Positions 6,967 through 46,878 of a stretch of DNA of 64,000 bases are shown one piece after another. The DNA is taken from assembly GCA_963767035.1 (NCBI GenBank), contig CAVYBW010000001.1:2246547-2310546 (forward strand), in the 5' to 3' direction. Numbering within the stretch: position 1 is the first letter of the stretch; every line of letters starts with the position of its first letter. The DNA comes from an uncultured Chloroflexia bacterium (GTDB lineage Bacteria; Chloroflexota; Chloroflexia; Chloroflexales; Herpetosiphonaceae). Both the position numbers and the translations under genes were made by a program. The notes beneath the pieces were generated by a model. It was given only the letters and a program-made list of their open reading frames with translations. It was not told where the DNA came from and searched no databases.

Positions 6967-7058
6967 CATCAGTAACCGATCGATTGATCAATACGGCGCT
7001 TGCTGGTTGCTGGGCAAGCGTATATATACGTGCCAATGATGGAATTGTTGGCTGAAGG

Positions 7059-8862
7059 ATGGACACGATGCTGGCACAAGCACCGAAACAATTAAGTAAT
7101 TTGCGTCATTTAGAGCTACGACGCATGTTTCAGTATGTATATCCCTATCGCTGGCGCTTAGCCGTGGCGCTGCTCTGTTTGGCGGTTTCTAGTGGCATTG
7201 GCCTGATTATGCCGCTAGCAATTCGCAATTTGGTCGAAACAGTCAAAGATGCCACAAGCACCAGTGCCTTGGATAAGGTTGCACTCGGTTTGATGGGCGT
7301 ATTTATCGCCCAAATGGTCTTTAATTATATTCAAGGCTATTTCTTGACCTACGTTGGCGAACGCGCAGTCGCCGATTTGCGCATTGAGGTCTATTCGCAT
7401 TTACAACGGCTTTCGTTGGCGTTCTTCAGCGAACGTCGCGTCGGCGAATTAACCTCGCGGGTCACCAATGATGTCACGGTGATTCAAGGTATTGGCACCA
7501 ATGCAGTCGCCGCCTTTCTACAAAATGGCATTACCTTTATCGGTAGTTTCATTATGATGATCAATCTCAGCTGGCAGCTGACCGCAATTACCCTGCTGCT
7601 GATTCCATTGATGATTGTGCTGGCGATTATCTATGGCCGCCGAATTCGCAATATGTCAACTGAAGTTCAAGATCGCATGGCTGAAGCTTCGTCGGTGCTC
7701 GAAGAAACTATCTCGGGCGTGCGGATCGTCCAATCGTTTGCCCGCGGCCTATGAAGTTGAGCGATTTAGCGGCGCAATTGAGCATGCGTTTTCGGCTTCG
7801 ATGCGCCGCACCAAAACACGCGCTCAGTTTGTGCCAATCGTCTCGTTTTCGGGCTTTGGCGCATTAGTCTTTGTGCTCTGGTTTGGTGGCCGTCAAGTGT
7901 TAAATGGCACAATGCAGCTTGGCGATTTGATTGCCTTCTTGCTGTATGCAGCGGTGATTGCTGGCTCACTTGGCACGTTTACCAGCCTCTATAGCCAATT
8001 GCAAGAGGCGCTTGGCTCGACCGCACGGGTATTTGGCATTTTGGATACTGCGCCATCGATTGCCAGCAAAACCAATGCGATTATCTTGCCAGCCATCGAA
8101 GGTGAAATTCATTTAGAAGATGTTTCATTTAATTATGCTGAAGGCAGTTTACCGGTGTTGAGCGGGATTAACCTCAGGGTGCAGCCTGGCGAGGTCATGG
8201 CCATTGTCGGGCCGAGTGGCTCTGGTAAATCAACCTTGGTTAATCTTATTCCGCGTTTCTACGATGTAACTGCTGGGCGGATCACAGTTGATGGCTTTGA
8301 CATTCGTGATGTCGATTTGCCCTCGTTGCGCTCGCAAATTGGGATTGTGCCGCAAGAAACCTTGCTGTTTAGCGGTACGATTGCCGATAATATTCGTTAT
8401 GGCAACCTCGATGCACCGATGGAAGCCGTTATCGAAGCGGCTCAAGCCGCCAATGCCCACGAATTTATCAGCAATTTCGAGGGTGGCTACGACTCGATCG
8501 TTGGTGAGCGTGGGATCAAACTCTCTGGTGGTCAACGCCAGCGCGTCGCCATTGCCCGGGCCTTGCTCAAAAACCCACGCATTTTGATTCTCGATGAAGC
8601 CACATCGGCCATGGATAGCGAATCGGAAGGCTTGGTACAAGAGGCCTTAGAACGCTTGATGCAAGGTCGCACCACCTTTGTGATTGCCCATCGATTTTCA
8701 ACCGTCAAAAATGCGACCCGAATTGCCGTGATTGAGGCTGGCCGCGTGACCGAACTCGGCTCACATAGCGAACTTTTAGCCCAAGCCGGCACATACGCTC
8801 GTTTGTATCATTTACAATTTGAAACCAACGAAACACCTGGATCTGTGCTAACAGAGTATTAA
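7059..8862 (+). pseudogene. MsbA-like ABC exporter (fused permease and ATPase) interrupted by a frameshift near 7745-7755.
   Basis: ORF 7059-7754 encodes the TMD and ends VQSFARGL*. ORF 7615-8862 continues in the +1 frame with YEVERF...GPSGSGKST...LSGGQRQR...ILDEATSAMD. The junction is consistent with loss of one nucleotide in ...gcccgcggcctatgaa.... Confidence 0.6.
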
Positions 8863-20312: not shown

Positions 20313-20388
20313 TCCCTGATAGCTCAGTTGGTAGAGCGGTTGACTGTTAATCAGCATGTCCTAGGTTCGAGTCCTAGTCAGGGAGCCA
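20313..20388 (+). tRNA. tRNA-Asn (GTT).
   Basis: Cloverleaf: acceptor TCCCTGA/TCAGGGA, anticodon loop CTGTTAA, encoded CCA, 76 nt. Confidence 0.9.
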
Positions 20389-20407
20389 CTTTTTTACAAA
20401 TCAATAA

Positions 20408-20483
20408 TCCCTGATAGCTCAGTTGGTAGAGCGGTTGACTGTTAATCAGCATGTCCTAGGTTCGAGTCCTAGTCAGGGAGCCA
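20408..20483 (+). tRNA. tRNA-Asn (GTT), second identical copy.
   Basis: Identical 76 nt. A 95-bp tandem duplication includes the upstream caaatcaataa leader. Confidence 0.9.
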
Positions 20484-29752: not shown

Positions 29753-29840
29753 AGCAAAGCTCTATTCACAAAGATTATTACAACTAGCTATTTTAACGCC
29801 TAGCTCCAAATTGGTTTTAGCCGAATCACAAAAGCTGCGT

Positions 29841-30085
29841 TTTAAAACCACGAAGAGCACGAAGGGCACGAAGAACGAAACCGCGAAGCACACGAAGATC
29901 GCGAAGGCTGAATTTTTTAGCCACAGATGATCACTGATGAGAATGATGGATAAACCTAGCATTGGCCGATTAGGTATTGGGTTTCATCCCTCATAATTCA
30001 TCCTTCATCCTTATTTTCTGCCTTTTGATTTTGCCTTTTGTCTTCTCTTATGTTCTATGCTCTTTGCTCTATGTTCTTAAAGCAA
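29841..30085. repeat. Mosaic intergenic repeat built from modules B (CACGAAG), A (TCATCC) and D (TTTTGCCTTTTG).
   Basis: accacgaagagcacgaagggcacgaag...tttcatccctcataattcatccttcatcc...ttctgccttttgattttgccttttgtc. The same modules recur at 25440-25640, 33951-34240 and elsewhere. Confidence 0.8.
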
Positions 30086-30141
30086 CAGGCCATGGAGCAC
30101 CAACACTCCACGGCCTGCGAAAAGTATGATTATGTCAATGG

Positions 30142-33919: not shown

Positions 33920-33950
33920 AATTCCTCCAACAATCAATTCTCAAGTTGAT

Positions 33951-34240
33951 CCACGAAGGGTACGAAGGGCACGAAGGCTGGCGATGGGCTATAGGCAGAA
34001 GGCTATTGGGAATATGGTTGAGCCACGCATTCCACGAATTATGGTTCTATTCCCAAAACTTGAAAATTTATACCTCTGCACCTTTGCGTTGAAGGTTTGA
34101 TCCACGAATTATGTTGATTATGTTCCAATAGCCGATAGCCTTCAGCCAAAAGCCCTCTGTTCTATGTTCTATTTTACCTTCTGATTTTGCCTTCTGACTT
34201 TAATCTTCATCCCACATAATTCATCCTTCATACTTTCAAG
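33951..34240. repeat. Mosaic intergenic repeat (modules B, C, D and A).
   Basis: gatccacgaagggtacgaagggcacgaagg; ccaatagccgatagccttcagccaaaagcc; ttctgattttgccttctgac; cttcatcccacataattcatccttcat. Confidence 0.8.
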
Positions 34241-34815
34241 GCTTCGATGCTACCAACCAAGAGCGGTACACTATCATTAATAAAGCTTTCGAGGTTTTGG
34301 CAGCGGTCGCTATAGAGCCAACGGGCCGCCAAGGCAAACACCGACCAACTCAGTATGGTAGCCAACAACTGGCGTTGCATCGCTGGCACGCTGCGCAACG
34401 GCAAATAATGATCAAGCCATGTTTGAATGTGTTGCTCAAGCATGCGTTTGATCTGGGTTTCAGCCAACGAATCGAAGAAACGATGATATTGATTGCACTG
34501 GCCATGGATCATCGTCCAATGATCAGCAATCGCCCATAGCAAGGCTTGCATATAGCGCGTCGGCGTGTCGGGATAATGCTGCATGCGACGATCGAGAAAC
34601 ATCATAAAGCCATCGCGAATCAGTTCATCAACCAAGGCATATTTATCGCTGAAATGGGCATAAAAGGTTGCCCGATTGATTGTTGCAGCCTCGGCAATCT
34701 CATTAACCGTCACTTCCTCGAAGGTACGGGTACGCAACAATTGAATTAAGGCATCGAGAATTAATTTACGAGTGCGCTTGGTGCGCGGGTCAATTTTTAC
34801 AGCGTTTCCCAACAT
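34228..34815 (-). CDS. TetR-family transcriptional regulator.
   Basis: N-terminal HTH FEEVTVNEIAEAATINRATFYAHFSDK. Confidence 0.85.
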   Translation of the reverse strand: MLGNAVKIDPRTKRTRKLILDALIQLLRTRTFEEVTVNEIAEAATINRATFYAHFSDKYALVDELIRDGFMMFLDRRMQHYPDTPTRYMQALLWAIADHWTMIHGQCNQYHRFFDSLAETQIKRMLEQHIQTWLDHYLPLRSVPAMQRQLLATILSWSVFALAARWLYSDRCQNLESFINDSVPLLVGSIEALKV

Positions 34816-35843: not shown

Positions 35844-35850
35844 GATTCCC

Positions 35851-36048
35851 TCACCCCCAACCCCTCGCCCAGGCTATGGGCGAGGGGCTTTTTCGTTCCG
35901 TGGTATTGCCATGCACCATGTACGCCACAGGTGCTCCCCCTCGCCCGCGTTCAGTGGGAGAGGGGGCTGGGGGGGTGAGGGAATCTCTGGAAACTCCCCC
36001 TCGCCCGCGTCCAGTGGGAGCGGGGGCTGGGGGGTGAGGGAACCACAC
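35851..36048. repeat. Three tandem GC-rich palindromic REP-like elements.
   Basis: ccctcacccccaacccctcgccc-loop-gggcgagggg units, each a long hairpin. They lie between convergent NmrA and rhodanese gene ends. Confidence 0.8.
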
Positions 36049-36956
36049 TATTTGCTGGTAGTTGGGTTATGAATTGGCAAGCCAACCACATTGCCCCATT
36101 CAGTCCATGAGCCGTCGTAATTGCGCACATTTTTATAGCCCAGCAGCTCGTGCAGCACAAACCACGTCAACGATGAGCGCTCACCAATCCGGCAATAAAC
36201 TACGGTATCACTTTCGGGAGTTACCCCAACGTCGCCATACAATTGGCTAATTTCGTCGGCACTCTTGAATGTGCCATCTTCATTGACCGCTTTGGCCCAA
36301 GGCACATTGACTGCGCCTGGAATATGGCCGCCACGCACCGCGCCTTCTTGAGGATATTCGGGCATATGCAGTTTCTTGCCAGTAAATTCATCGGGCGAGC
36401 GCACATCGACCAAACTATGGCCTACGGGCAATTCAATTGCGCTTTGGCGTGGATTTGGCCGCCCAATGTGGGCCAAGACATCATCGCGGAAGGCGCGAAT
36501 CTCGGGCTTTGGCTCGCCGACAACATAGCTGGTTGACTCGAAGTTTGGCACAGTGCGGGTCAATTCACGGCCTTCGTCGATCCATTTTTTGCGCCCGCCG
36601 TTCATAATTTTGAGCTTTTCGTGGCCAAGCAATTGGAAAACCCAATAGGCATAGCAAGCCCACCAATTATTTTTATCGCCATAAAACACAATTGTCGTGT
36701 CGTTACTAATCCCAAAGCGGCTCAGCAAGGCGGCAAAAGCATCGCCATCAATGTAATCGCGAATCCGCACATCATTCAAATCATCTTGCCAATTGATTTT
36801 GACGGCGTTGGCAATATGCCCCATCTCATACAGCAAAATATCTTCATCCGACTCAACCAAACGCACATTGGCATCGTTTAAATGTTCAGCCACCCACTCG
36901 GTACTCACCAAGACATCAGGATTCACATAATCGCTCATAGGTTGCTCCTTTATCAA
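36048..36956 (-). CDS. sseA: Two-domain rhodanese (thiosulfate/3-mercaptopyruvate sulfurtransferase).
   Basis: Tandem rhodanese domains with the catalytic loop CRIGERSS. Confidence 0.85.
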
Positions 36957-37375: not shown

Positions 37376-38794
37376 CTAACCGACCGAACCTTCCATTTCC
37401 ATTTGGATCAAGCGGTTCAATTCGACAGCATATTCCATGGGCAATTCGCGGGTGAATGGCTCCATAAAGCCCAGCACAATCATCGAAAGTGCTTCGGCTT
37501 CGTCGAGACCACGGCTCATCAGATAGAACAATTGCTCTTCGCCGATTTTGCCGACGGTCGCTTCGTGAGCCACGGTCGCTGAATCTTCCTCGATCTCGAT
37601 GTAGGGAATCGTGTCCGAGGCTGAGCGACTGTCGAGAATTAAGGCATCACACACCACATTGACTTTGGCGTTATGTGCGCCGCGCATAACCTTGGCCAAA
37701 CCGCGATAGGTGGTACGACCACCATTCTTGGAGACCGATTTGTTGGTGATGCGGCTGGTGGTATCGGGAGCGCCATGGACCATCTTGGCACCAGCATCTT
37801 GATGTTGGCCTTCGCCAGCATAAGCAACTGAGAGCACCTCGCCTTTTGCGCCGCGACCCATCATATAAACCGCAGGATACTTCATGGTCAACTTCGAGCC
37901 AATGTTGCCATCGACCCATTCCATTGAAGCATCTTCGTAGGCAACAGCTCGTTTGGTCACCAAATTGAAAATGTTGTTAGCCCAGTTTTGAATCGTAGTA
38001 TAGCGGCACTTACCACCTTTTTTGATGATAATTTCAACCACTGCTGAGTGCAGCGAGTTGGTGCTATAAACTGGAGCAGTACAACCTTCGATATAGTGAA
38101 CTTCAGCGCCTTCGTCAACGATAATCAAAGTACGTTCGAACTGGCCCATGTTTTCAGCGTTGATGCGGAAATAGGCTTGCAATGGAATATCGACCTTGAC
38201 ACCCTTAGGCACATACACGAACGAGCCACCCGACCAAACCGCCGTGTTCAACGCAGCAAATTTGTTATCGGCTGAAGGGATAATCGTGCCAAAATATTCC
38301 TTGAACAACTCAGGATACTCTTTCAAGCCTGTGTCGGTATCAAGGAAGATCACGCCCAATTTTTCCCATTCTTCGCGCAGCGAGTGGTAGACCACTTCTG
38401 ATTCGTATTGAGCGCCAACGCCAGCCAAGAACTTGCGTTCAGCTTCAGGAATACCCAATTTTTCAAAGGTATTCTTGATACTTTCTGGTACATCGTCCCA
38501 GTTATTTTCGGTTTTTTCGCCAGGCCGCACATAATAGTGAATATCTTGGAAATCCAACTCAGCTAAGCGCGGGTTGGCCCATACACCACTCACTGGCAAT
38601 GGTTTTTTATGGAAAATTTCCAGCGCCTTCAAGCGGCGTTGCAACATCCATTCAGGCTCGCCCTTCATTGCTGAGATCGTGCGCACAATTTCGGCATTCA
38701 AACCTTTTGAAGATTTGAATGTATAGTTCTCTTCGTCGCGAAAGCCGTACTTCGAGTAATCAAACTCGATTTCGTTTTGTGCAGGGTTGGACAT
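37376..38794 (-). CDS. sufB: Fe-S cluster assembly protein SufB.
   Basis: 472 aa with the conserved SufB core, including the C-terminal [22 protein letters not shown] region. Confidence 0.95.
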
Positions 38795-39028
38795 GCCCTG
38801 TGCCTCCTATAGTGTGATCACGAATAAGTGATGAGATTACTTGATTCAGAATCGGATAATTCTGTTTCTAAATGATGCCATTCGTTGGCTGAAAATTCGG
38901 CTCGTGCCTTGGCAATTGATTGTTGATAATGCTGCTCACGCAATCGTTTTCCCAGAGTCCGAATGCTACTCCAGCATATTCAACTAATCGGATTATGTCG
39001 ATTAGTGCTGGACGTTGAGCAACCTCAA

Positions 39029-39424
39029 TCAAAGGCTATCCTCATCGTCGTCAACGAGATTGACCCCGTAGAGCCCAGCTTTGAGCGTTTTGAGCGAGAG
39101 CAAAGCACACTTGAGCCGCACTGGCCCAATCGGAATCCCCAATAAATCGAGGATGGTTTGTTTATCAAAGGCTTTGGCTTCATCAACGCTTTTGCCAGTC
39201 AGTTCTTCGCTGAGCATCGAGGCTGAAGCTTGGCTGATTGCACAGCCTTTGCCTTTGAATTTTACATCAACAATCCGCTCGTTCTCGACCAGCAAATAAA
39301 TGCTGAGTTGATCGCCGCACAACGGGTTGTGCTCGTGTTGCACAATCGTTGGCTGCTCAAGCTCGCCGTAATTTCGCGGATGGCGATAGTGATCTAATAT
39401 ATTTTCACGATATAAATCGTCCAC
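39029..39424 (-). CDS. sufU: SufU (IscU-like Zn-dependent sulfur acceptor).
   Basis: NPLCGD...GKGCAISQASASMLSEELTGKSVDEA, with three Cys and an Asp ligand. Confidence 0.9.
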   Translation of the reverse strand: MDDLYRENILDHYRHPRNYGELEQPTIVQHEHNPLCGDQLSIYLLVENERIVDVKFKGKGCAISQASASMLSEELTGKSVDEAKAFDKQTILDLLGIPIGPVRLKCALLSLKTLKAGLYGVNLVDDDEDSL

Positions 39425-39430
39425 AATGCC

Positions 39431-40669
39431 TCACAGTTGGAAGGTATCGCGAGCCAGAACCAAGGCTTCGGCCAAACGATCAATTTCTTCCTCAAGCGTG
39501 TATAGGTAGAATGATGCGCGTACCGTCGCTGGTACGCCCAGAATATCGTGCAATGGATGGGTACAATGATGCCCAGCCCGCACCGCAATGCCTTGCGTAT
39601 CGAGAATTGCCGCCACATCGTGGGCATGCACGCCAGCCAAGGTGAAACTCAACAAGCCACCACGCTCGGCAGCAGGTGGACCAAAAATGGTCAACCCATC
39701 GATGGCGCTGAGTTTATCCCATGCATAATCAGTCAATTGGCGTTCGCGCTCGTGAATCGCATCCATCCCAAGCCCATTCAGGAAGTCAATCGCCGCGCCA
39801 AGGCCAATCGCCTCGGCAATTGCTGGCGTGCCTGCCTCAAATTTCCATGGGAGATCGTTCCATGAGCTTTCGCGTAGCCCGACCCGTTTGATCATATCGC
39901 CGCCACCCATAAACGGTGGCATGGCTTCAAGCAATTCGCGCCGCGCCCACAGCGCACCAATGCCTGTTGGGCCGCACATTTTATGCCCCGAGAAGGCCAA
40001 GAAATCGCAACCAAGCGCTTGAACATTGACCGGAATATGCGGCACGCTTTGCGCCCCATCCAGCAGCACCAAAGCGCCGACCTGTTTGGCAGCAGCAATC
40101 ACCTGTTCAACCGGATTGATCGTACCCAACACATTCGACATATGGGTGATAGCAACCAGTTTGGTGCGTTCGGTCACAAGTTGATCAAGTTTGGTTAGAT
40201 CAAGCCGACCTTGGGCATCAAGTTCAATAAAATCAAGCTCTACGCCGATTTGGGCTGCCAGCATTTGCCATGGCACCAGATTCGAATGATGTTCGCTGAC
40301 TGTTAGCAAAATCCGATCACCCGCCTGTAGATTGGCGCGGCCCCAACTGTGGGCAACCAAGTTGATTGCTTCAGTGGCGTTGCGGGTAAAAATAATTTCT
40401 TTGGTCGATTTCGCGCCGATAAAACGGCCAATTGTGCGGCGCGTGCCTTCATAGGCTTCGGTCGCTGCTTCACTAATCTGATACACACCTCGATGGACAT
40501 TCGCATTAATCGTTCGATAGTAGCGATCCATGGCATCGAGCACCGCCAGCGGCTTTTGGGCAGTCGCAGTGCTATCCAAATATGCCAAACGATGGCCGTT
40601 AATCGATTGATCCAAGAGCGGAAATTGCTCGCGAATGGCGTTGATATCAAGGGTTGTTTGTACAGACAT
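39431..40669 (-). CDS. sufS: Cysteine desulfurase SufS.
   Basis: Class II aminotransferase V fold with PLP-Lys SGHK and active-site Cys RAGHHCTHPL. Confidence 0.95.
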   Translation of the reverse strand: MSVQTTLDINAIREQFPLLDQSINGHRLAYLDSTATAQKPLAVLDAMDRYYRTINANVHRGVYQISEAATEAYEGTRRTIGRFIGAKSTKEIIFTRNATEAINLVAHSWGRANLQAGDRILLTVSEHHSNLVPWQMLAAQIGVELDFIELDAQGRLDLTKLDQLVTERTKLVAITHMSNVLGTINPVEQVIAAAKQVGALVLLDGAQSVPHIPVNVQALGCDFLAFSGHKMCGPTGIGALWARRELLEAMPPFMGGGDMIKRVGLRESSWNDLPWKFEAGTPAIAEAIGLGAAIDFLNGLGMDAIHERERQLTDYAWDKLSAIDGLTIFGPPAAERGGLLSFTLAGVHAHDVAAILDTQGIAVRAGHHCTHPLHDILGVPATVRASFYLYTLEEEIDRLAEALVLARDTFQL

Positions 40670-40680
40670 AACTCACCAAT

Positions 40681-41120
40681 ATCCGATCCACGAAGGACAC
40701 AAAGAGCACGAAGAATTACTATTTGATCCACGAAGGACACAAAGAGCACGAATGGTTGGCTCTTGCGATCTGTAAAATTCATAGGCAATTAACATGGTGA
40801 TTGTGAATTTAACGAACTAAGCGTTTCCATTCCAACTTGCCAAGACTGCCGAACTTAATCAATAGCCCAACCCGAAGTTGCACCAACTCCAATGCAAGGG
40901 CTTCTTGATAAACAGCCTCTAAGAACCCACTACCCAACTCGCGATGAACCTCAATTGCAGCCCCTACAATCGCGAACACTTCATCTGCCAAAAGAATCGT
41001 TGCCATCCACGCCTCCCAAAAATAGTTAGTTGGTTCCAAATTACTAGATACACAAACCAACTATTTTTGGGATGACACAAAAAACATGCTTCGTGTCCTT
41101 CGTGCTCTTCGTGAATCAAA
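40681..41120. mobile_element. Putative MITE-like insertion carrying a GxxExxY ORF, bounded by inverted module-B repeats.
   Basis: The left end has 2x gatccacgaaggacacaaagagcacgaa (40685-40752). The right end, 41091-41118, is the reverse complement built from the same words (ttcgtgtccttcgtgctcttcgtgaatc). It sits in the 454-bp sufS-sufD spacer. Confidence 0.4.
40809..41060 (-). CDS. GxxExxY-family protein, short form (N-terminal part only).
   Basis: GFLEAVY matches the G-x-x-E-x-x-Y signature. 83 aa, shorter than typical family members. Confidence 0.5.
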
Positions 41121-41123
41121 TCG

Positions 41124-42321
41124 TTAGACTTTTTCGGCGACAATCGTTTCGACCCGTTCGCGCACAGCTTCGTCGGGAATCATATCGATGATTTCGCCGA
41201 CAAAGCCCAACACGATCGTGCGCTTGGCTTCGGCAAAAGGCAAACCGCGCGATTGCAGATAGAACAACTGCTCAGCATCGATTTGGCCGCTAGTCGAGCC
41301 GTGACCAGCCTTAACTTCGTTGGCATCAATCTCCAAGCCTGGAATTGAATCCGAGCGTGAAGTGTTGCTCAAGTGCAAGGCATTCTCGCGCAAGTCGGAG
41401 TTCGTGCCTTGACCGCTAGCAGGAATCTTGACCATGCCATCAAAAACAGCATAGGCTTCATCATCAACCACGGTTTTGAAGTTAATTTGGCCTTCGGTAT
41501 TCAAGCCAATGTGGTTGAGCTTGGGGGCAACCAGCAAGTTTTGCTTGCCATTGCCATACAACAAGCCGTTCCAATTGACGCTTGAGCCGTTGCCGCTCAA
41601 ATTGGCTTCCAAGGTGACGTGCTGCACAGCGCTCCCAACGACGACATTCAGCCATTCGGCTTGGGCATCGCGGTTGATGCGAATTTGTTGGCTGCCCAAC
41701 ATATACACATTGCGGTTTAAAATTTGCACGCTGCTGAAGTTTAACTTTGCCACCATCGCCAACTTCGATTTCAGCGCCAGTCAAGAAGACGGCACTAGCG
41801 TCAAAATCAGCTGAGCTAATTTCTTCGATCACATTGATCGAGCTATGACGCTCAGTCACGATCAAGGTGCGAGGAGCGACAATTGTGCCAGCATTCGCCA
41901 CGTGATAGCGAATTCGCACTAATTCGTCAACCACAACATCTTTGGCAACGTGGATGAAAATCCCACCGTTAACCAAGGCATTGTTGAGCGCCGAATATGG
42001 ATCGCGGCTAGTTTGCACAGCGCTACCAAGCACCCGTTGCACCAACTCGGCATGGCTCTGAATTGCTTCGGCCAAAGGCAAAATTGTTACGCCTTCAGCG
42101 CCAGCGAATTCAACTGAAACATCAGCTTCAGCCACGCTGTAATCGGCAATATTGAAGCCCTTCAAGTTGGTTCGGCGCCACTCAGGTTGCTCAGCGGTTT
42201 CAAAGGCGTCCCAAGCTTCGCGGCGGCGGGTGGTTAGCCACTCTGGCTCGTTGCGGCTGGCCAGCAAGGCCTCAAATTGCGCCACATCAAAGGTAGATTG
42301 CAAATTAGCTGGCATTGCCAA
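41124..42321 (-). pseudogene. sufD: Fe-S cluster assembly protein SufD, frameshifted near 41760-41810.
   Basis: The N-terminal ORF 42321-41482 and C-terminal ORF 41762-41124 overlap in different frames. The C-terminal frame carries conserved SufB/D motifs (HLSNTSRSDSIPGLEIDANEVKAGHGSTSGQIDAEQLFYLQSRG). Confidence 0.6.
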
Positions 42322-43111
42322 ACACTTCCTCTCGAATGAAATCGTAACCTTTTTCTTCGAGTTCTAATGCCATTTCCGGGCCACCTTCGCGCACGATTTG
42401 GCCGTTCATCAGAACGTGCACATAATCAGGCTTGATGTAGTTGAGCAAGCGTTGGTAGTGGGTGATGACCAACACGCCCAATTCAGGCTTTTCGGTTTTA
42501 ACTTTGTTGACACCTTCGGCCACAATCTTCAAAGCGTCGATATCAAGCCCTGAATCGGTTTCATCCATGATTGAGATTGAAGGCTGCAACATGGCCATTT
42601 GCAAAATTTCAAGCCGTTTCTTTTCACCACCAGAGAACCCTTCGTTCAAATAGCGGCGGGCGAAATCAGGAGCCATTTCCAACATATCCATGCGGGCTTT
42701 GATCACTTTGCGATATTCAGCCATTGGAATGGCGGTCGACTTAGGATCAACGCCTTCTTGGGCGCGATGTGCGTTTAAGGCAGCGCGTAAGAAGTTGGCA
42801 ACGGTTACACCAGCAACCGCGACTGGATATTGGAAAGCCAAGAACAAGCCCAATTTTGAACGATCATTTGGTTCGAGATCAAGTACATCTTGGCCTTTGT
42901 ACCAAACTTCGCCTTCGGTCACTTCGTAGCGTGGGTGACCAGCGAGGGTATACGCCAAGGTTGACTTGCCTGAGCCATTTGGCCCCATGATGGCGTGAAT
43001 TTTGCCTTCTTCGATGGTGAGATTAATACCTTTGAGAATTTCTTTGCCATCGACCGCAACGTGCAAGTTGCGAATGACCAAATTGTTGGCGCTCATGACA
43101 CTCCTATTCAA
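42305..43111 (-). CDS. sufC: Fe-S cluster assembly ATPase SufC.
   Basis: Walker A GPNGSGKST. ABC signature LNEGFSGGEKKR. 17-nt overlap with sufD. Confidence 0.95.
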   Translation of the reverse strand: MNRSVMSANNLVIRNLHVAVDGKEILKGINLTIEEGKIHAIMGPNGSGKSTLAYTLAGHPRYEVTEGEVWYKGQDVLDLEPNDRSKLGLFLAFQYPVAVAGVTVANFLRAALNAHRAQEGVDPKSTAIPMAEYRKVIKARMDMLEMAPDFARRYLNEGFSGGEKKRLEILQMAMLQPSISIMDETDSGLDIDALKIVAEGVNKVKTEKPELGVLVITHYQRLLNYIKPDYVHVLMNGQIVREGGPEMALELEEKGYDFIREEVFGNAS

Positions 43112-43168: not shown

Positions 43169-43831
43169 TTAGTTATGCTTCTCAATCCCAATCTCATCGG
43201 CCTTAATCACAAAGTGACAGCCATTATGACCTTCGACCATGCGGCGTTGAATTTCAACTTCATGGCCGAGTGCAGTTTCCATCATTTGGCGTTCCATGCT
43301 ACACAGGCTATCGTGGGTTTGGGCTACCTCAAAATAAGGGCAGGCATATTCGCTCACAACCCAACCACCGCCAGGCGATTCGGCGACATTAATCGACATG
43401 CCTTTACGGTTCATGGTGTAGACGAATTGCATCAAACGCTCACGTAGCGCAGCATTGACAGGGTGATCGCCAGTGTATAACGTTGCTAAGCGCGTACCCA
43501 CCCGACTAAGCAGTTGCGCCATTCCATCTGGGCCTTCAGTCGCCAAAATCTCTTCCAGCAACACATTCAAGAGTACATCGTAGCCCTTAGGAAATAGCGA
43601 TTGCGCCTTCGCAGTCAGGGTATAGCGGTAGGAAGGACGGCCTGGGCCTTGGCGAATTTTGGTCGGTGCAATGAGTCCTTGGTTGGTGAGATGGGTTAGT
43701 TGCTCGCGCACCGCAGTTGTGCTCACAGCCAGCGCATCTTCCAATTCCTTGACAGTCGCTGAACCTTTACGCTGAATATAGCTCACAATATCGCCGGCGG
43801 GCGTTCCTTCTCGGATACCAAACACGGTCAT
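43169..43831 (-). CDS. sufR: SufR-like iron-sulfur cluster biosynthesis regulator.
   Basis: N-terminal winged HTH. C-terminal Cys cluster CPYF-X12-C-X28-C. Sits upstream of sufC. Confidence 0.7.
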   Translation of the reverse strand: MTVFGIREGTPAGDIVSYIQRKGSATVKELEDALAVSTTAVREQLTHLTNQGLIAPTKIRQGPGRPSYRYTLTAKAQSLFPKGYDVLLNVLLEEILATEGPDGMAQLLSRVGTRLATLYTGDHPVNAALRERLMQFVYTMNRKGMSINVAESPGGGWVVSEYACPYFEVAQTHDSLCSMERQMMETALGHEVEIQRRMVEGHNGCHFVIKADEIGIEKHN

Positions 43832-46040: not shown

Positions 46041-46115
46041 TGGTGCCACCTTCCGGGCTGAACCGGAAACCCTACAATTTTCAATCGTATGCTCTACCAA
46101 CTGAGCTAAAGTGGC
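46041..46115 (-). tRNA. tRNA-Phe (GAA).
   Basis: Reverse complement is GCCACTTTAGCTCAGTTGGTAGAGC...anticodon loop TTGAAAA...CCA. Confidence 0.9.
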
Positions 46116-46347: not shown

Positions 46348-46878
46348 TTAGTGCCGTGGTATTATAATCAGCTTTGGCGTTCTTGTCAAATTGGATATTC
46401 CATCGCCCAAAAGCTGCAAATTATCCTCCCAAGGGTAGCTCAATTCTAGGCGTTCGGGTTGAATATTTCCATGCCATCCTTCGACTGATTCGAGGGTCTG
46501 AAAACCATACTGCGCGTAGAGAGTTTGGGCATTGCGCGTCGCCAACAGCCAACGCCGCAAGCCTTGAAGCTCAGGGTGGGCTAGGATGGTTTGCACCAAC
46601 CACTTGCCAAGGCCATTGCCACGATGCTCGGCCAAAATATAGACATCATCTAAATAGGCAAATACGGCATAATCGGTAATCACCCGCGCCAAGCCAATTT
46701 GCTGCTGGCCGTGATAGACCCCAAAACACAACGAATGCTCGACCGAGCGGATAATCGTCGCTGGCTCGCGTTTGGCGGCCCAATAGGTTTGATGAAGGCC
46801 ATCAACAATCGCTGCATAATCGAGGCGGGCCGGATCGGTGCTGATTGTATAGTCGTCACGCTGCCATTGCATACTCAT
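46348..46878 (-). CDS. GNAT-family N-acetyltransferase.
   Basis: Motif A RGNGLGKWL. Confidence 0.8.
   Translation of the reverse strand: MSMQWQRDDYTISTDPARLDYAAIVDGLHQTYWAAKREPATIIRSVEHSLCFGVYHGQQQIGLARVITDYAVFAYLDDVYILAEHRGNGLGKWLVQTILAHPELQGLRRWLLATRNAQTLYAQYGFQTLESVEGWHGNIQPERLELSYPWEDNLQLLGDGISNLTRTPKLIIIPRH

Follow-up and report, generated by a model that had tools for sequence, protein, structure and literature searches.

A GxxExxY gene remnant between inverted word arrays at the sufD–sufS junction of an uncultured Herpetosiphonaceae bacterium

The suf operon of an uncultured Chloroflexia bacterium (Chloroflexales; Herpetosiphonaceae; GenBank assembly GCA_963767035.1, contig CAVYBW010000001.1, positions 2,246,547 to 2,310,546) lies on the minus strand of the 64,000-nt stretch of DNA analyzed here, hereafter the window. 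Between sufD and sufS it holds the remnant of a GxxExxY-family gene, bracketed by inverted arrays of a short word, which we refer to together as the cassette (Table 1). A Rieske protein gene and a rhodanese gene come after sufB in the same operon. An earlier reading made from the sequence alone (the sequence-only reading) had described a 454-bp sufD–sufS spacer, which the coordinates bear out (40670-41123, between the sufS start at 40669 and the sufD stop at 41124-41126); it had also described the suf genes as otherwise tightly packed, which holds roughly, except for a gap of 222 nt between sufU and sufB. A scan of the sufD–sufS spacer returned no sigma-70 promoter-like and no intrinsic terminator-like site. 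Among Rfam covariance models, only tRNAs passed the gathering thresholds in the window, with nothing credible at E ≤ 10 in 40500-41300.

The motif GFLEAVY, pointed out in the sequence-only reading, lies in an open reading frame (ORF) on the minus strand (40809-41060) that gives 83 aa when started at a TTG. This ORF matches a family whose function has been listed as unknown (PMC3424549), with 48.2 bits for TIGR04256 (cut-off 35), a match limited to profile positions 3-36 of 116, and 48.1 bits for PF13366 (PDDEXK_3; cut-off 22). The residues G27, E30 and Y33 are invariant in a 107-sequence alignment. The ATG at 41006 appears to be a likelier start than the TTG, because the resulting 65-aa product is identical to the database protein P0121 and relatives share that ATG. 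The repeats described earlier were also recovered: a 28-nt unit occurs in two exact copies (40685-40712 and 40725-40752), with words of the same kind inverted on the other flank (41086-41117). Taken as 33-nt units, the two 3'-arm copies are 94% identical at a 40-nt spacing, and the 24-nt core of the repeat was matched in none of 100 shuffles. The arms of the cassette, 32-42 nt long, are 76-78% complementary, with 16-nt cores at 94%, and the cassette therefore has terminal inverted repeats. The 3' arm adjoins sufS likewise in three of the loci compared, L001, L003 and L004.

The ORF had been taken for the N-terminal part only of a typical family member. Alignment with full-length relatives instead shows a 125-aa protein that has lost exactly 60 internal codons (180 nt), so that residues 1-43 run directly into its last 22 residues. 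According to an AlphaFold2 (AF2) model, the missing residues 44-103 comprise strands beta1-3, which carry D70, E80 and K82, together with helix 89-102; the full-length (~125 aa) domain with its catalytic D..ExK is not present in the window copy. An independent, read-based Logan contig (ERR11593883) reproduces the same 65-aa ORF with the same spacings on either side, which indicates that the deletion is real and not an assembly artefact. Full-length relatives (P0122 and others) are typical 125-aa GxxExxY members with a predicted PD-(D/E)XK fold, and the intact cassette protein is accordingly modelled as a small (~125 aa) PD-(D/E)XK nuclease with a Cas4/RecB-like fold. A PDB sequence search with a full-length relative gave no match. 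PADLOC profiles gave 0 matches for the GxxExxY protein, PHROGs gave a single marginal match (29 residues, E 0.0035) and no relative was found among IMG/VR contigs, and a defence or phage origin is thus unsupported by these three resources. When the window ORF was compared with L003, a Logan Herpetosiphon contig, the N-terminal 43 codons displayed 7 synonymous and 0 non-synonymous differences, and the C-terminal 22 codons displayed 2 synonymous and 3 non-synonymous differences, including a change of the nearly invariant N111 to K. This pattern suggests a recent inactivation of the window ORF. As judged from its sequence, the window cassette is dead: the 180-bp in-frame deletion took the catalytic D..ExK core, and the arms and hairpin remain.

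Table 1. Coordinates of the cassette, the suf genes, the geneless arrays and the other features with single-base indels (positions in the window).
Feature	Position	Strand	Description	Basis or comparison
5' arm	41086-41117	minus	three CACGAAG words, 9-nt period (GATTCACGAAGAGCACGAAGGACACGAAG); begins 10 nt past the sufD stop	inverted repeats; conserved in L003, L004 and L001
Leader hairpin	41014-41072	minus	~18-21 bp stem, 90% complementary; 3' strand extends into the cassette ORF's ribosome-binding site (GGGAGG)	
GxxExxY remnant ORF	40809-41006	minus	65 aa from ATG; deletion junction between 40878 and 40877	
3' arm, ORF-proximal copy	40720-40752	minus	coding strand TTCGTGCTCTTTGTGTCCTTCGTGGATC	direct and inverted repeats
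3' arm, sufS-proximal copy	40680-40712	minus	ends 15 nt before the sufS ATG	direct and inverted repeats
sufR-like	43169-43831	minus		
sufC	42305-43111	minus	intact	
sufD	41124-42321	minus	ATG at 42315; 396 codons after removal of one base	TIGR01981 and SufB/D matches to both ORF halves
sufS	39431-40669	minus	intact	TIGR01979 597 bits; dN/dS 0.049 vs H. aurantiacus
sufU	39029-39424	minus	intact	
sufB	37376-38794	minus	intact	
CACGAAG word array	29849-29905	+	proB-secA spacer, no GxxExxY ORF	
CACGAAG word array	33948-33977	+	GATCCACGAAGGGTACGAAGGGCACGAAGG; NUDIX-TetR spacer, no ORF	
ABC transporter (fused membrane and ATPase domains)	7056-8862	+	extra G at ~7745 splits it into two ORFs	CGCGGCC where CGCGCC gives FARAYEVERF
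GNAT acetyltransferase	46348-46878	minus	+1 insertion at 46473, 26 nt before the normal stop	
tRNA-Phe(GAA)	46041-46115	minus	T-loop without one G at 46059	GGTTCAGCC vs GGTTCGAGCC in relatives

Next, we compared the sufD–sufS junction across relatives. H. giganteus carries an intact 129-aa GxxExxY gene there with the same kind of arms, and L003 an intact 125-aa gene. A 1-nt deletion splits the gene into 80 and 39 aa in H. aurantiacus DSM 785 as well as in four metagenome contigs. In L092, whose SufD is 70% identical, the GxxExxY ORF is cut after 24 codons, with CACGAAG words upstream and CTTCGTG words beside sufS. Overall, the cassette was present in every Herpetosiphon locus fetched and in L092, and absent only in L094 (SufD 63% identical), where the spacer is only 88 nt long and contains neither CACGAAG nor CTTCGTG words. 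Because the GxxExxY gene or its arms occupy the same junction in H. giganteus, H. aurantiacus, L003 and L092, we read the cassette as an old, vertically inherited resident rather than a fresh insertion. The proposal of an insertion resembling a miniature inverted-repeat transposable element (MITE) was correct insofar as a GxxExxY remnant does lie between inverted modules, in a repeat class that includes MITE-like ORF-less pairs (see below). The operon of this particular genome, however, has not been interrupted: its junction is shared with relatives, two of which hold the gene at full length, an arrangement that the sequence-only reading had itself named as speaking against its proposal.

Taken across these junctions, the cassette ORF has decayed at least three times independently, through the 180-bp deletion, the 1-nt deletion and the 24-codon truncation, and the arms persist in all cases. 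The H. giganteus copy may have a different history. Its leader has diverged by K 0.77, compared to a dS of 0.48 for sufD, and noncoding parts diverged this far beyond the sufD synonymous sites suggest that a paralogous cassette has taken the place of the original one, instead of a simple orthologous descent. Three Logan contigs from H. aurantiacus-like samples (L009, L010 and L011) all break off within the 5' array, at exactly 31 nt downstream of the sufD stop. Such a break is expected of a multicopy sequence at k=31 and suggests that the array is one.

The sufD gene itself is split into two overlapping ORFs (41482-42321 and 41124-41762), as had been recognized, with the lesion slightly outside the 41760-41810 interval where it had been placed. 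A single extra base lies at 41740-41742 (TTT on the + strand, AAA in the coding sense), within GTTAAACTT; relatives have one base fewer (alignment to three relatives; blastn gap list) and read GTT-AAT-TTC or GTT-GGC-TTC at this site. Removing one A gives a sufD of 1191 nt, equal in length to that of relatives, and a 396-aa product that aligns with H. giganteus SufD over 100% of its length at 95% identity; a 396-aa SufD is found in all named Herpetosiphon species. No single ORF reaches the TIGR01981 equivalog cut-off of 222 (203.4 bits for the C-terminal fragment, 29.4 for the N-terminal one), and the truncated 277-aa product is the database protein P0013, i.e., the frameshift is in the deposited assembly. 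We then evaluated selection on both sides of the lesion: dN/dS against H. aurantiacus and H. giganteus was 0.06-0.09 upstream of the frameshift and 0.04-0.06 downstream, close to the values of sufS (0.049) and sufU (0.043) and slightly higher than those of sufC (0.024) and sufB (0.017). Since purifying selection is strong on both sides, the lesion, if it exists at all, must be very recent.

Single-base indels also affect an ABC transporter, a GNAT acetyltransferase and tRNA-Phe(GAA), all three of them conserved features of the window (Table 1). The Pfam ABC_membrane domain is divided between the two transporter ORFs (positions 2-198 in the first, 200-273 in the second), and the GNAT insertion turns the C-terminus ...EPWMEIFNNQA (stop) into a read-through product of 176 aa, compared to 141 aa in H. 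aurantiacus and H. giganteus. The tRNA-Phe has an Rfam score of 57.6 bits, below tRNA-Val and two tRNA-Asn (68.6-71.6) and above tRNA-Leu (47.0). Given these further indels and the intact selection on sufD, the most likely cause of the sufD frameshift, and one we hold to be quite probable, is an assembly indel. The Logan contig of ERR11593883 starts at about window position 41743, within 3 nt of the frameshift (computed from gene coordinates), and a contig break at this point would fit heterogeneous reads. Of the two options left by the sequence-only reading, a sequence error or a degraded suf cluster, dN/dS and the other indels thus favour the error; there is no sign of degradation, sufC, sufS, sufU and sufB being intact with dN/dS of 0.02-0.05, and the cluster is probably functional. 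The cassette, which that reading had taken for a possible mobile-element footprint, lies ~615 nt away from the frameshift, and no connection between the two was seen.

To describe the class to which the cassette belongs, 80 GxxExxY loci were taken from species-representative genomes, among the matches listed, and the 68 with enough flank were analyzed. The loci span Chloroflexota, Planctomycetota, Acidobacteriota, Bacteroidota, Verrucomicrobiota, several proteobacterial groups, Cyanobacteria and others. An inverted-repeat match between the 200-nt upstream and downstream flanks (score ≥14) was found at 32 of the 68 loci, compared to 2 of 68 mismatched locus pairs and 0 of 61 regions located 1.1 kb away. 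Chains of CRCRRA words with a spacing of 8-11 nt were detected upstream in sense orientation at 49 loci and downstream in antisense orientation at 37, with at most 1 of 61 in controls. The array words vary by lineage (CACGAAG, CGCGAAT, CGCAGAT, CACAGAT, CACGGAT, CACAAAT), and word type follows protein similarity (0 of 2000 permutations). A C stands directly before the outermost word in 46 of 50 cases, for a consensus of RWCCRCRRA. Where both neighbours point in the same direction, 40 cassettes are co-oriented with them and 2 opposed, and the 5' array begins a median of 18 nt past the upstream stop codon. The Herpetosiphon suf cassette fits all of these class features: inverted arrays, co-orientation and a post-stop position. 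At 50% identity and E ≤ 0.001, the GxxExxY/PDDEXK_3 family amounts to 15,054 clusters. While the protein family is already known, its repeat architecture appears to be undescribed: full-text searches, including searches with array sequences, found no published description of the arrays or the cassette architecture, within an incomplete literature coverage that makes this an absence of evidence only.

Most arrays have no gene. A metagenome scan for CCACGAAGNNCACGAAGNNCACGAAG, with both strands translated, yielded at least 120 loci with 152 arrays, 130 of them classifiable. Among the matches listed, 7 of the 130 CCACGAAG-type arrays adjoin a GxxExxY gene, 66 form ORF-less inverted pairs <200 nt apart, 49 are solo arrays by a strict criterion, and 8 have a partner arm ≥200 nt away without a GxxExxY gene between; no other recurrent cargo was found in these arrays. 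That the genes are nearly always within arrays and the arrays mostly geneless is, by analogy, the pattern of autonomous and non-autonomous elements. The window itself contains three array-bearing spacers. Two of them, proB-secA (29835-30100) and NUDIX-TetR (33935-34245), are ORF-less mosaics of short-period word modules (the CACGAAG array, TTCTGATTTTGCCTT, TCATCCTTCAT/GGATGAA and TGTTCTATG), several of which are common to both spacers in a different order, and they resemble the mosaics of bacterial interspersed mosaic elements (BIMEs). On the metagenome contig L143 (3-340), about a dozen tandem CACGAAG-type words are followed by a matching CTTCGTG run, an expanded hairpin array without an ORF.

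We next considered whether the arms act at the level of DNA or RNA. The predicted fold of the spacer as sense RNA (z -4.55 for the window, -3.48 for L003) pairs the 5' arm with a 3' arm so as to enclose the ORF, and it also forms the leader hairpin. This hairpin is in the minimum-free-energy fold; in H. giganteus, a single divergent sequence, ~8 of its pairs have changed on both sides and the hairpin persists. Across loci, arm-arm mismatches show no G.U excess (30 vs 20, p=0.2) and include 71 transversions, and they are three times as frequent in linkers as in words (15.1% vs 5.3%, p=1.6e-8), a comparison that is partly circular through the word definition. Solo arrays were not significantly biased towards one strand relative to transcription (13 vs 7). 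With no G.U excess, words conserved over linkers and no significant strand bias of solo arrays, the evidence on balance favours arms that are arrays of protein-recognition sites rather than a strict RNA helix.

Taken together, the joint explanation we consider best, and probable, is a resident, decayed GxxExxY cassette of a selfish class combined with an artefact in sufD. A promoterless nuclease gene oriented with the operon would ride on host operon transcription, and the cassettes may be selfish elements comparable to pairs of REPINs (hairpin-forming doublets of repetitive extragenic palindromic, or REP, sequences) and RAYTs (REP-associated tyrosine transposases), or to pairs of insertion sequences (IS) and MITEs. 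The co-occurrence of gene and arrays suggests that the nuclease acts on its own word arrays, including the far commoner ORF-less inverted pairs. Once fixed at its site, a cassette would decay in the manner of homing-endonuclease genes. The arms are predicted to pair within the transcript and loop out the insert, which may explain its tolerance by the host. More broadly, and tentatively, we propose that GxxExxY genes and CRCRRA arrays could form a previously undescribed repeat–enzyme system of many phyla, a PD-(D/E)XK counterpart of REPIN/RAYT. Here, a minimal Cas4-like nuclease would recognize its own flanking arrays of 9-10-nt period, the same arrays would fill operon spacers as ORF-less hairpin pairs, the gene would travel as a promoterless passenger just past host stop codons, and cassettes would be exchanged or replaced at fixed sites, as possibly seen for the H. 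giganteus copy. This broader proposal is one that we see as possible rather than probable.

Other explanations have to be weighed against the decayed resident cassette. A recent MITE-like insertion between sufD and sufS, in a degrading suf cluster with sufD as a true pseudogene, would account for a truncated ORF bracketed by inverted repeat modules, for the frameshifted sufD of the deposited assembly (P0013) and for the MITE-like look of the ORF-less array pairs. It is nonetheless improbable given that no fewer than four other lineages have the cassette at this junction, and given the intact state of the other suf genes and the strong purifying selection on sufD on either side of the frameshift, the single-base indels in three further conserved features of the window, and the distance of ~615 nt between cassette and frameshift. 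A better, if still rather unlikely, candidate is that the arms and leader hairpin are domesticated elements of the suf mRNA that could serve in its processing or stability, or as a stem bringing the sufD stop to the sufS start for coupled translation, with the nuclease gene as dispensable cargo. Consistent with this, the arms outlast a dead or nearly vanished ORF, the noncoding parts diverge 2-4 times more slowly than synonymous sites, the closing stem and hairpin are predicted to fold better than shuffles, compensatory changes keep the hairpin in H. giganteus, and the spacer is without an internal promoter or terminator. Yet the arm mismatches lack a G.U bias and include many linker transversions, and it is the words that are conserved, not base pairing; the orientation of solo arrays is not significantly biased; arrays of this kind are also found in numerous unrelated intergenic regions; and gene conversion among dispersed copies could also give a slow divergence.

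Two narrower alternatives concern the products of the broken frames. The 65-aa in-frame product might be a functional mini-protein, for instance a binding-only or regulatory derivative of the nuclease, as the in-frame nature of the deletion, the purely synonymous differences from L003 in the N-terminal 43 codons (7 to 0), and the intact start codon, ribosome-binding site and hairpin would allow. However, one third of random deletions are in frame, the entire beta-sheet core and the catalytic residues are lost, 3 non-synonymous changes fall in the 22 C-terminal codons, including the one at the nearly invariant Asn, and the exact 65-aa protein forms a single-member cluster, which together make this very improbable. 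For sufD, expression through a programmed +1 ribosomal frameshift at GTT-AAA-CTT would fit two conserved halves abutting in adjacent frames. We find it scarcely credible, as the extra base is found in no relative, the site has no recognizable shift-prone motif or stimulatory stop codon, and similar indels affect unrelated genes and a tRNA.

Importantly, several observations weigh against the combination of a selfish resident cassette and an artefactual sufD frameshift. The first bases of the ERR11593883 Logan contig (TAAAC) hold the three-A variant, meaning that at least some reads carry it, and the single-base indels of the window are not in long homopolymers; the sufD frameshift could be a real, very recent mutation. 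For the cassette, recognition of the word arrays by the nuclease is suggested solely by their co-occurrence, and the correlation between word and protein could reflect plain co-inheritance. We found no direct sign of mobility: there was no target-site duplication by eye, no presence/absence polymorphism within the genus, and absence in one distant relative only. Specifically, no direct repeat was seen by eye outside the arms (CGATTT before GATTCACG and GGATATT after CGTGGATC), where no systematic search for target-site duplications was made and L094 is too diverged to set boundaries. Finally, the noncoding cassette has diverged between the window and H. aurantiacus by K 0.10-0.21, compared to a dS of ~0.47, even though both ORFs are dead. 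This divergence, slower than that of synonymous sites, points to constraint or gene conversion, and hints that the copies convert one another or that the cassette has a function for the host or at the RNA level, and is not purely selfish.

Additional observations were made elsewhere in the operon and the window. The sufU–sufB spacer is a second suf operon junction with lodged extra genes: in H. giganteus and L092/L093 it holds a small ORF and a PIN-domain gene, a VapBC-like pair (L001 8455-9188; L092 5855-6479), and in the window (38795-39028) and H. aurantiacus it keeps only a short conserved ORF remnant (...REQHYQQSIA...SNLITYS). In L094 (6818-8203), the sufB product is called at 777 aa and extends beyond the end of the locus; its matches to Hint and LAGLIDADG_3 suggest an intein. 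A G+C-rich repeat adjoins the rhodanese gene (window 35844-36072), with translations reading GEGAGG / PSPxxGRGRGG, and in L092 (3940-4010) the GxxExxY ORF body is replaced by a similar GGGG/CCCC-rich palindromic stretch; this repeat is a family distinct from the CACGAAG arrays. A tandem pair of tRNA-Asn(GTT) genes, with identical Rfam scores, lies at 20313-20483 with 20 nt between them.

The window locus is an ordinary dead copy of a long-resident Herpetosiphon suf cassette, and the suf pathway of this genome should not be scored as broken, since the single-base indels, probably errors of the assembly, would create false pseudogenes. What merits follow-up is the class: its minimal nucleases make up a very large family, and their genes share a conspicuous repeat architecture. 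This architecture (inverted arrays, post-stop co-orientation, ORF-less derivatives and in-place decay) is consistent and testable, and the arrays offer biochemistry a concrete hypothesis on the substrate of GxxExxY nucleases. In practice, CACGAAG-type intergenic repeats also break short-read assemblies and inflate ORF calls with 'HEGHEEHE'-type N-terminal extensions.

Compared to known systems, the window ORF is linked to the GxxExxY family (TIGR04256/PF13366) by scores above both model cut-offs and by the GFLEAVY motif, and differs from it in having lost residues 44-103 with the D..ExK core, hence a remnant; the intact protein resembles Cas4/RecB-family nucleases in its predicted fold. Integron systems comprise an integrase, attI and attC, with cassettes in arrays. 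Like integron cassettes, the GxxExxY ORF is promoterless, almost always co-oriented with its host (40 vs 2) and delimited by imperfect inverted repeats, but it has no integrase, attI or attC, carries repeats on both sides, and occurs singly, scattered in operon spacers. Free-standing homing-endonuclease genes go through an invasion–decay cycle and are normally not bracketed by inverted word arrays. The likeness here is of a small nuclease gene that sits in housekeeping loci and, once fixed, decays separately from lineage to lineage. The difference lies in the bracketing of the GxxExxY gene by inverted word arrays, and neither a cleavage target nor a homing site in an empty allele was seen for it.

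With IS/MITE pairs, the cassettes share terminal inverted repeats, here with RWCCRCRRA as the defined motif at the outer end, and the existence of both gene-bearing and geneless versions. Unlike them, they carry no DDE or other known transposase, and the suf cassette is stable at one site across the genus, with no target-site duplication seen by eye. Membership in MITEs or in REPIN/RAYT was considered and rejected for both on the type of enzyme, and for MITEs also on the lack of presence/absence polymorphism among close relatives. RAYTs are HUH/Y1 transposases paired with the single-palindrome repeats REP/REPIN. In contrast, the GxxExxY enzyme is of the PD-(D/E)XK type by Pfam and fold, its repeat consists of about three words with a 9-10-nt period rather than a single palindrome, and its genes are many paralogues, each with its own arms, that decay in place. 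What the two systems have in common is an enzyme gene flanked by inverted copies of a dispersed repeat, and arrays, here of CRCRRA words, that are mostly ORF-less inverted doublets in intergenic DNA and far outnumber the gene.

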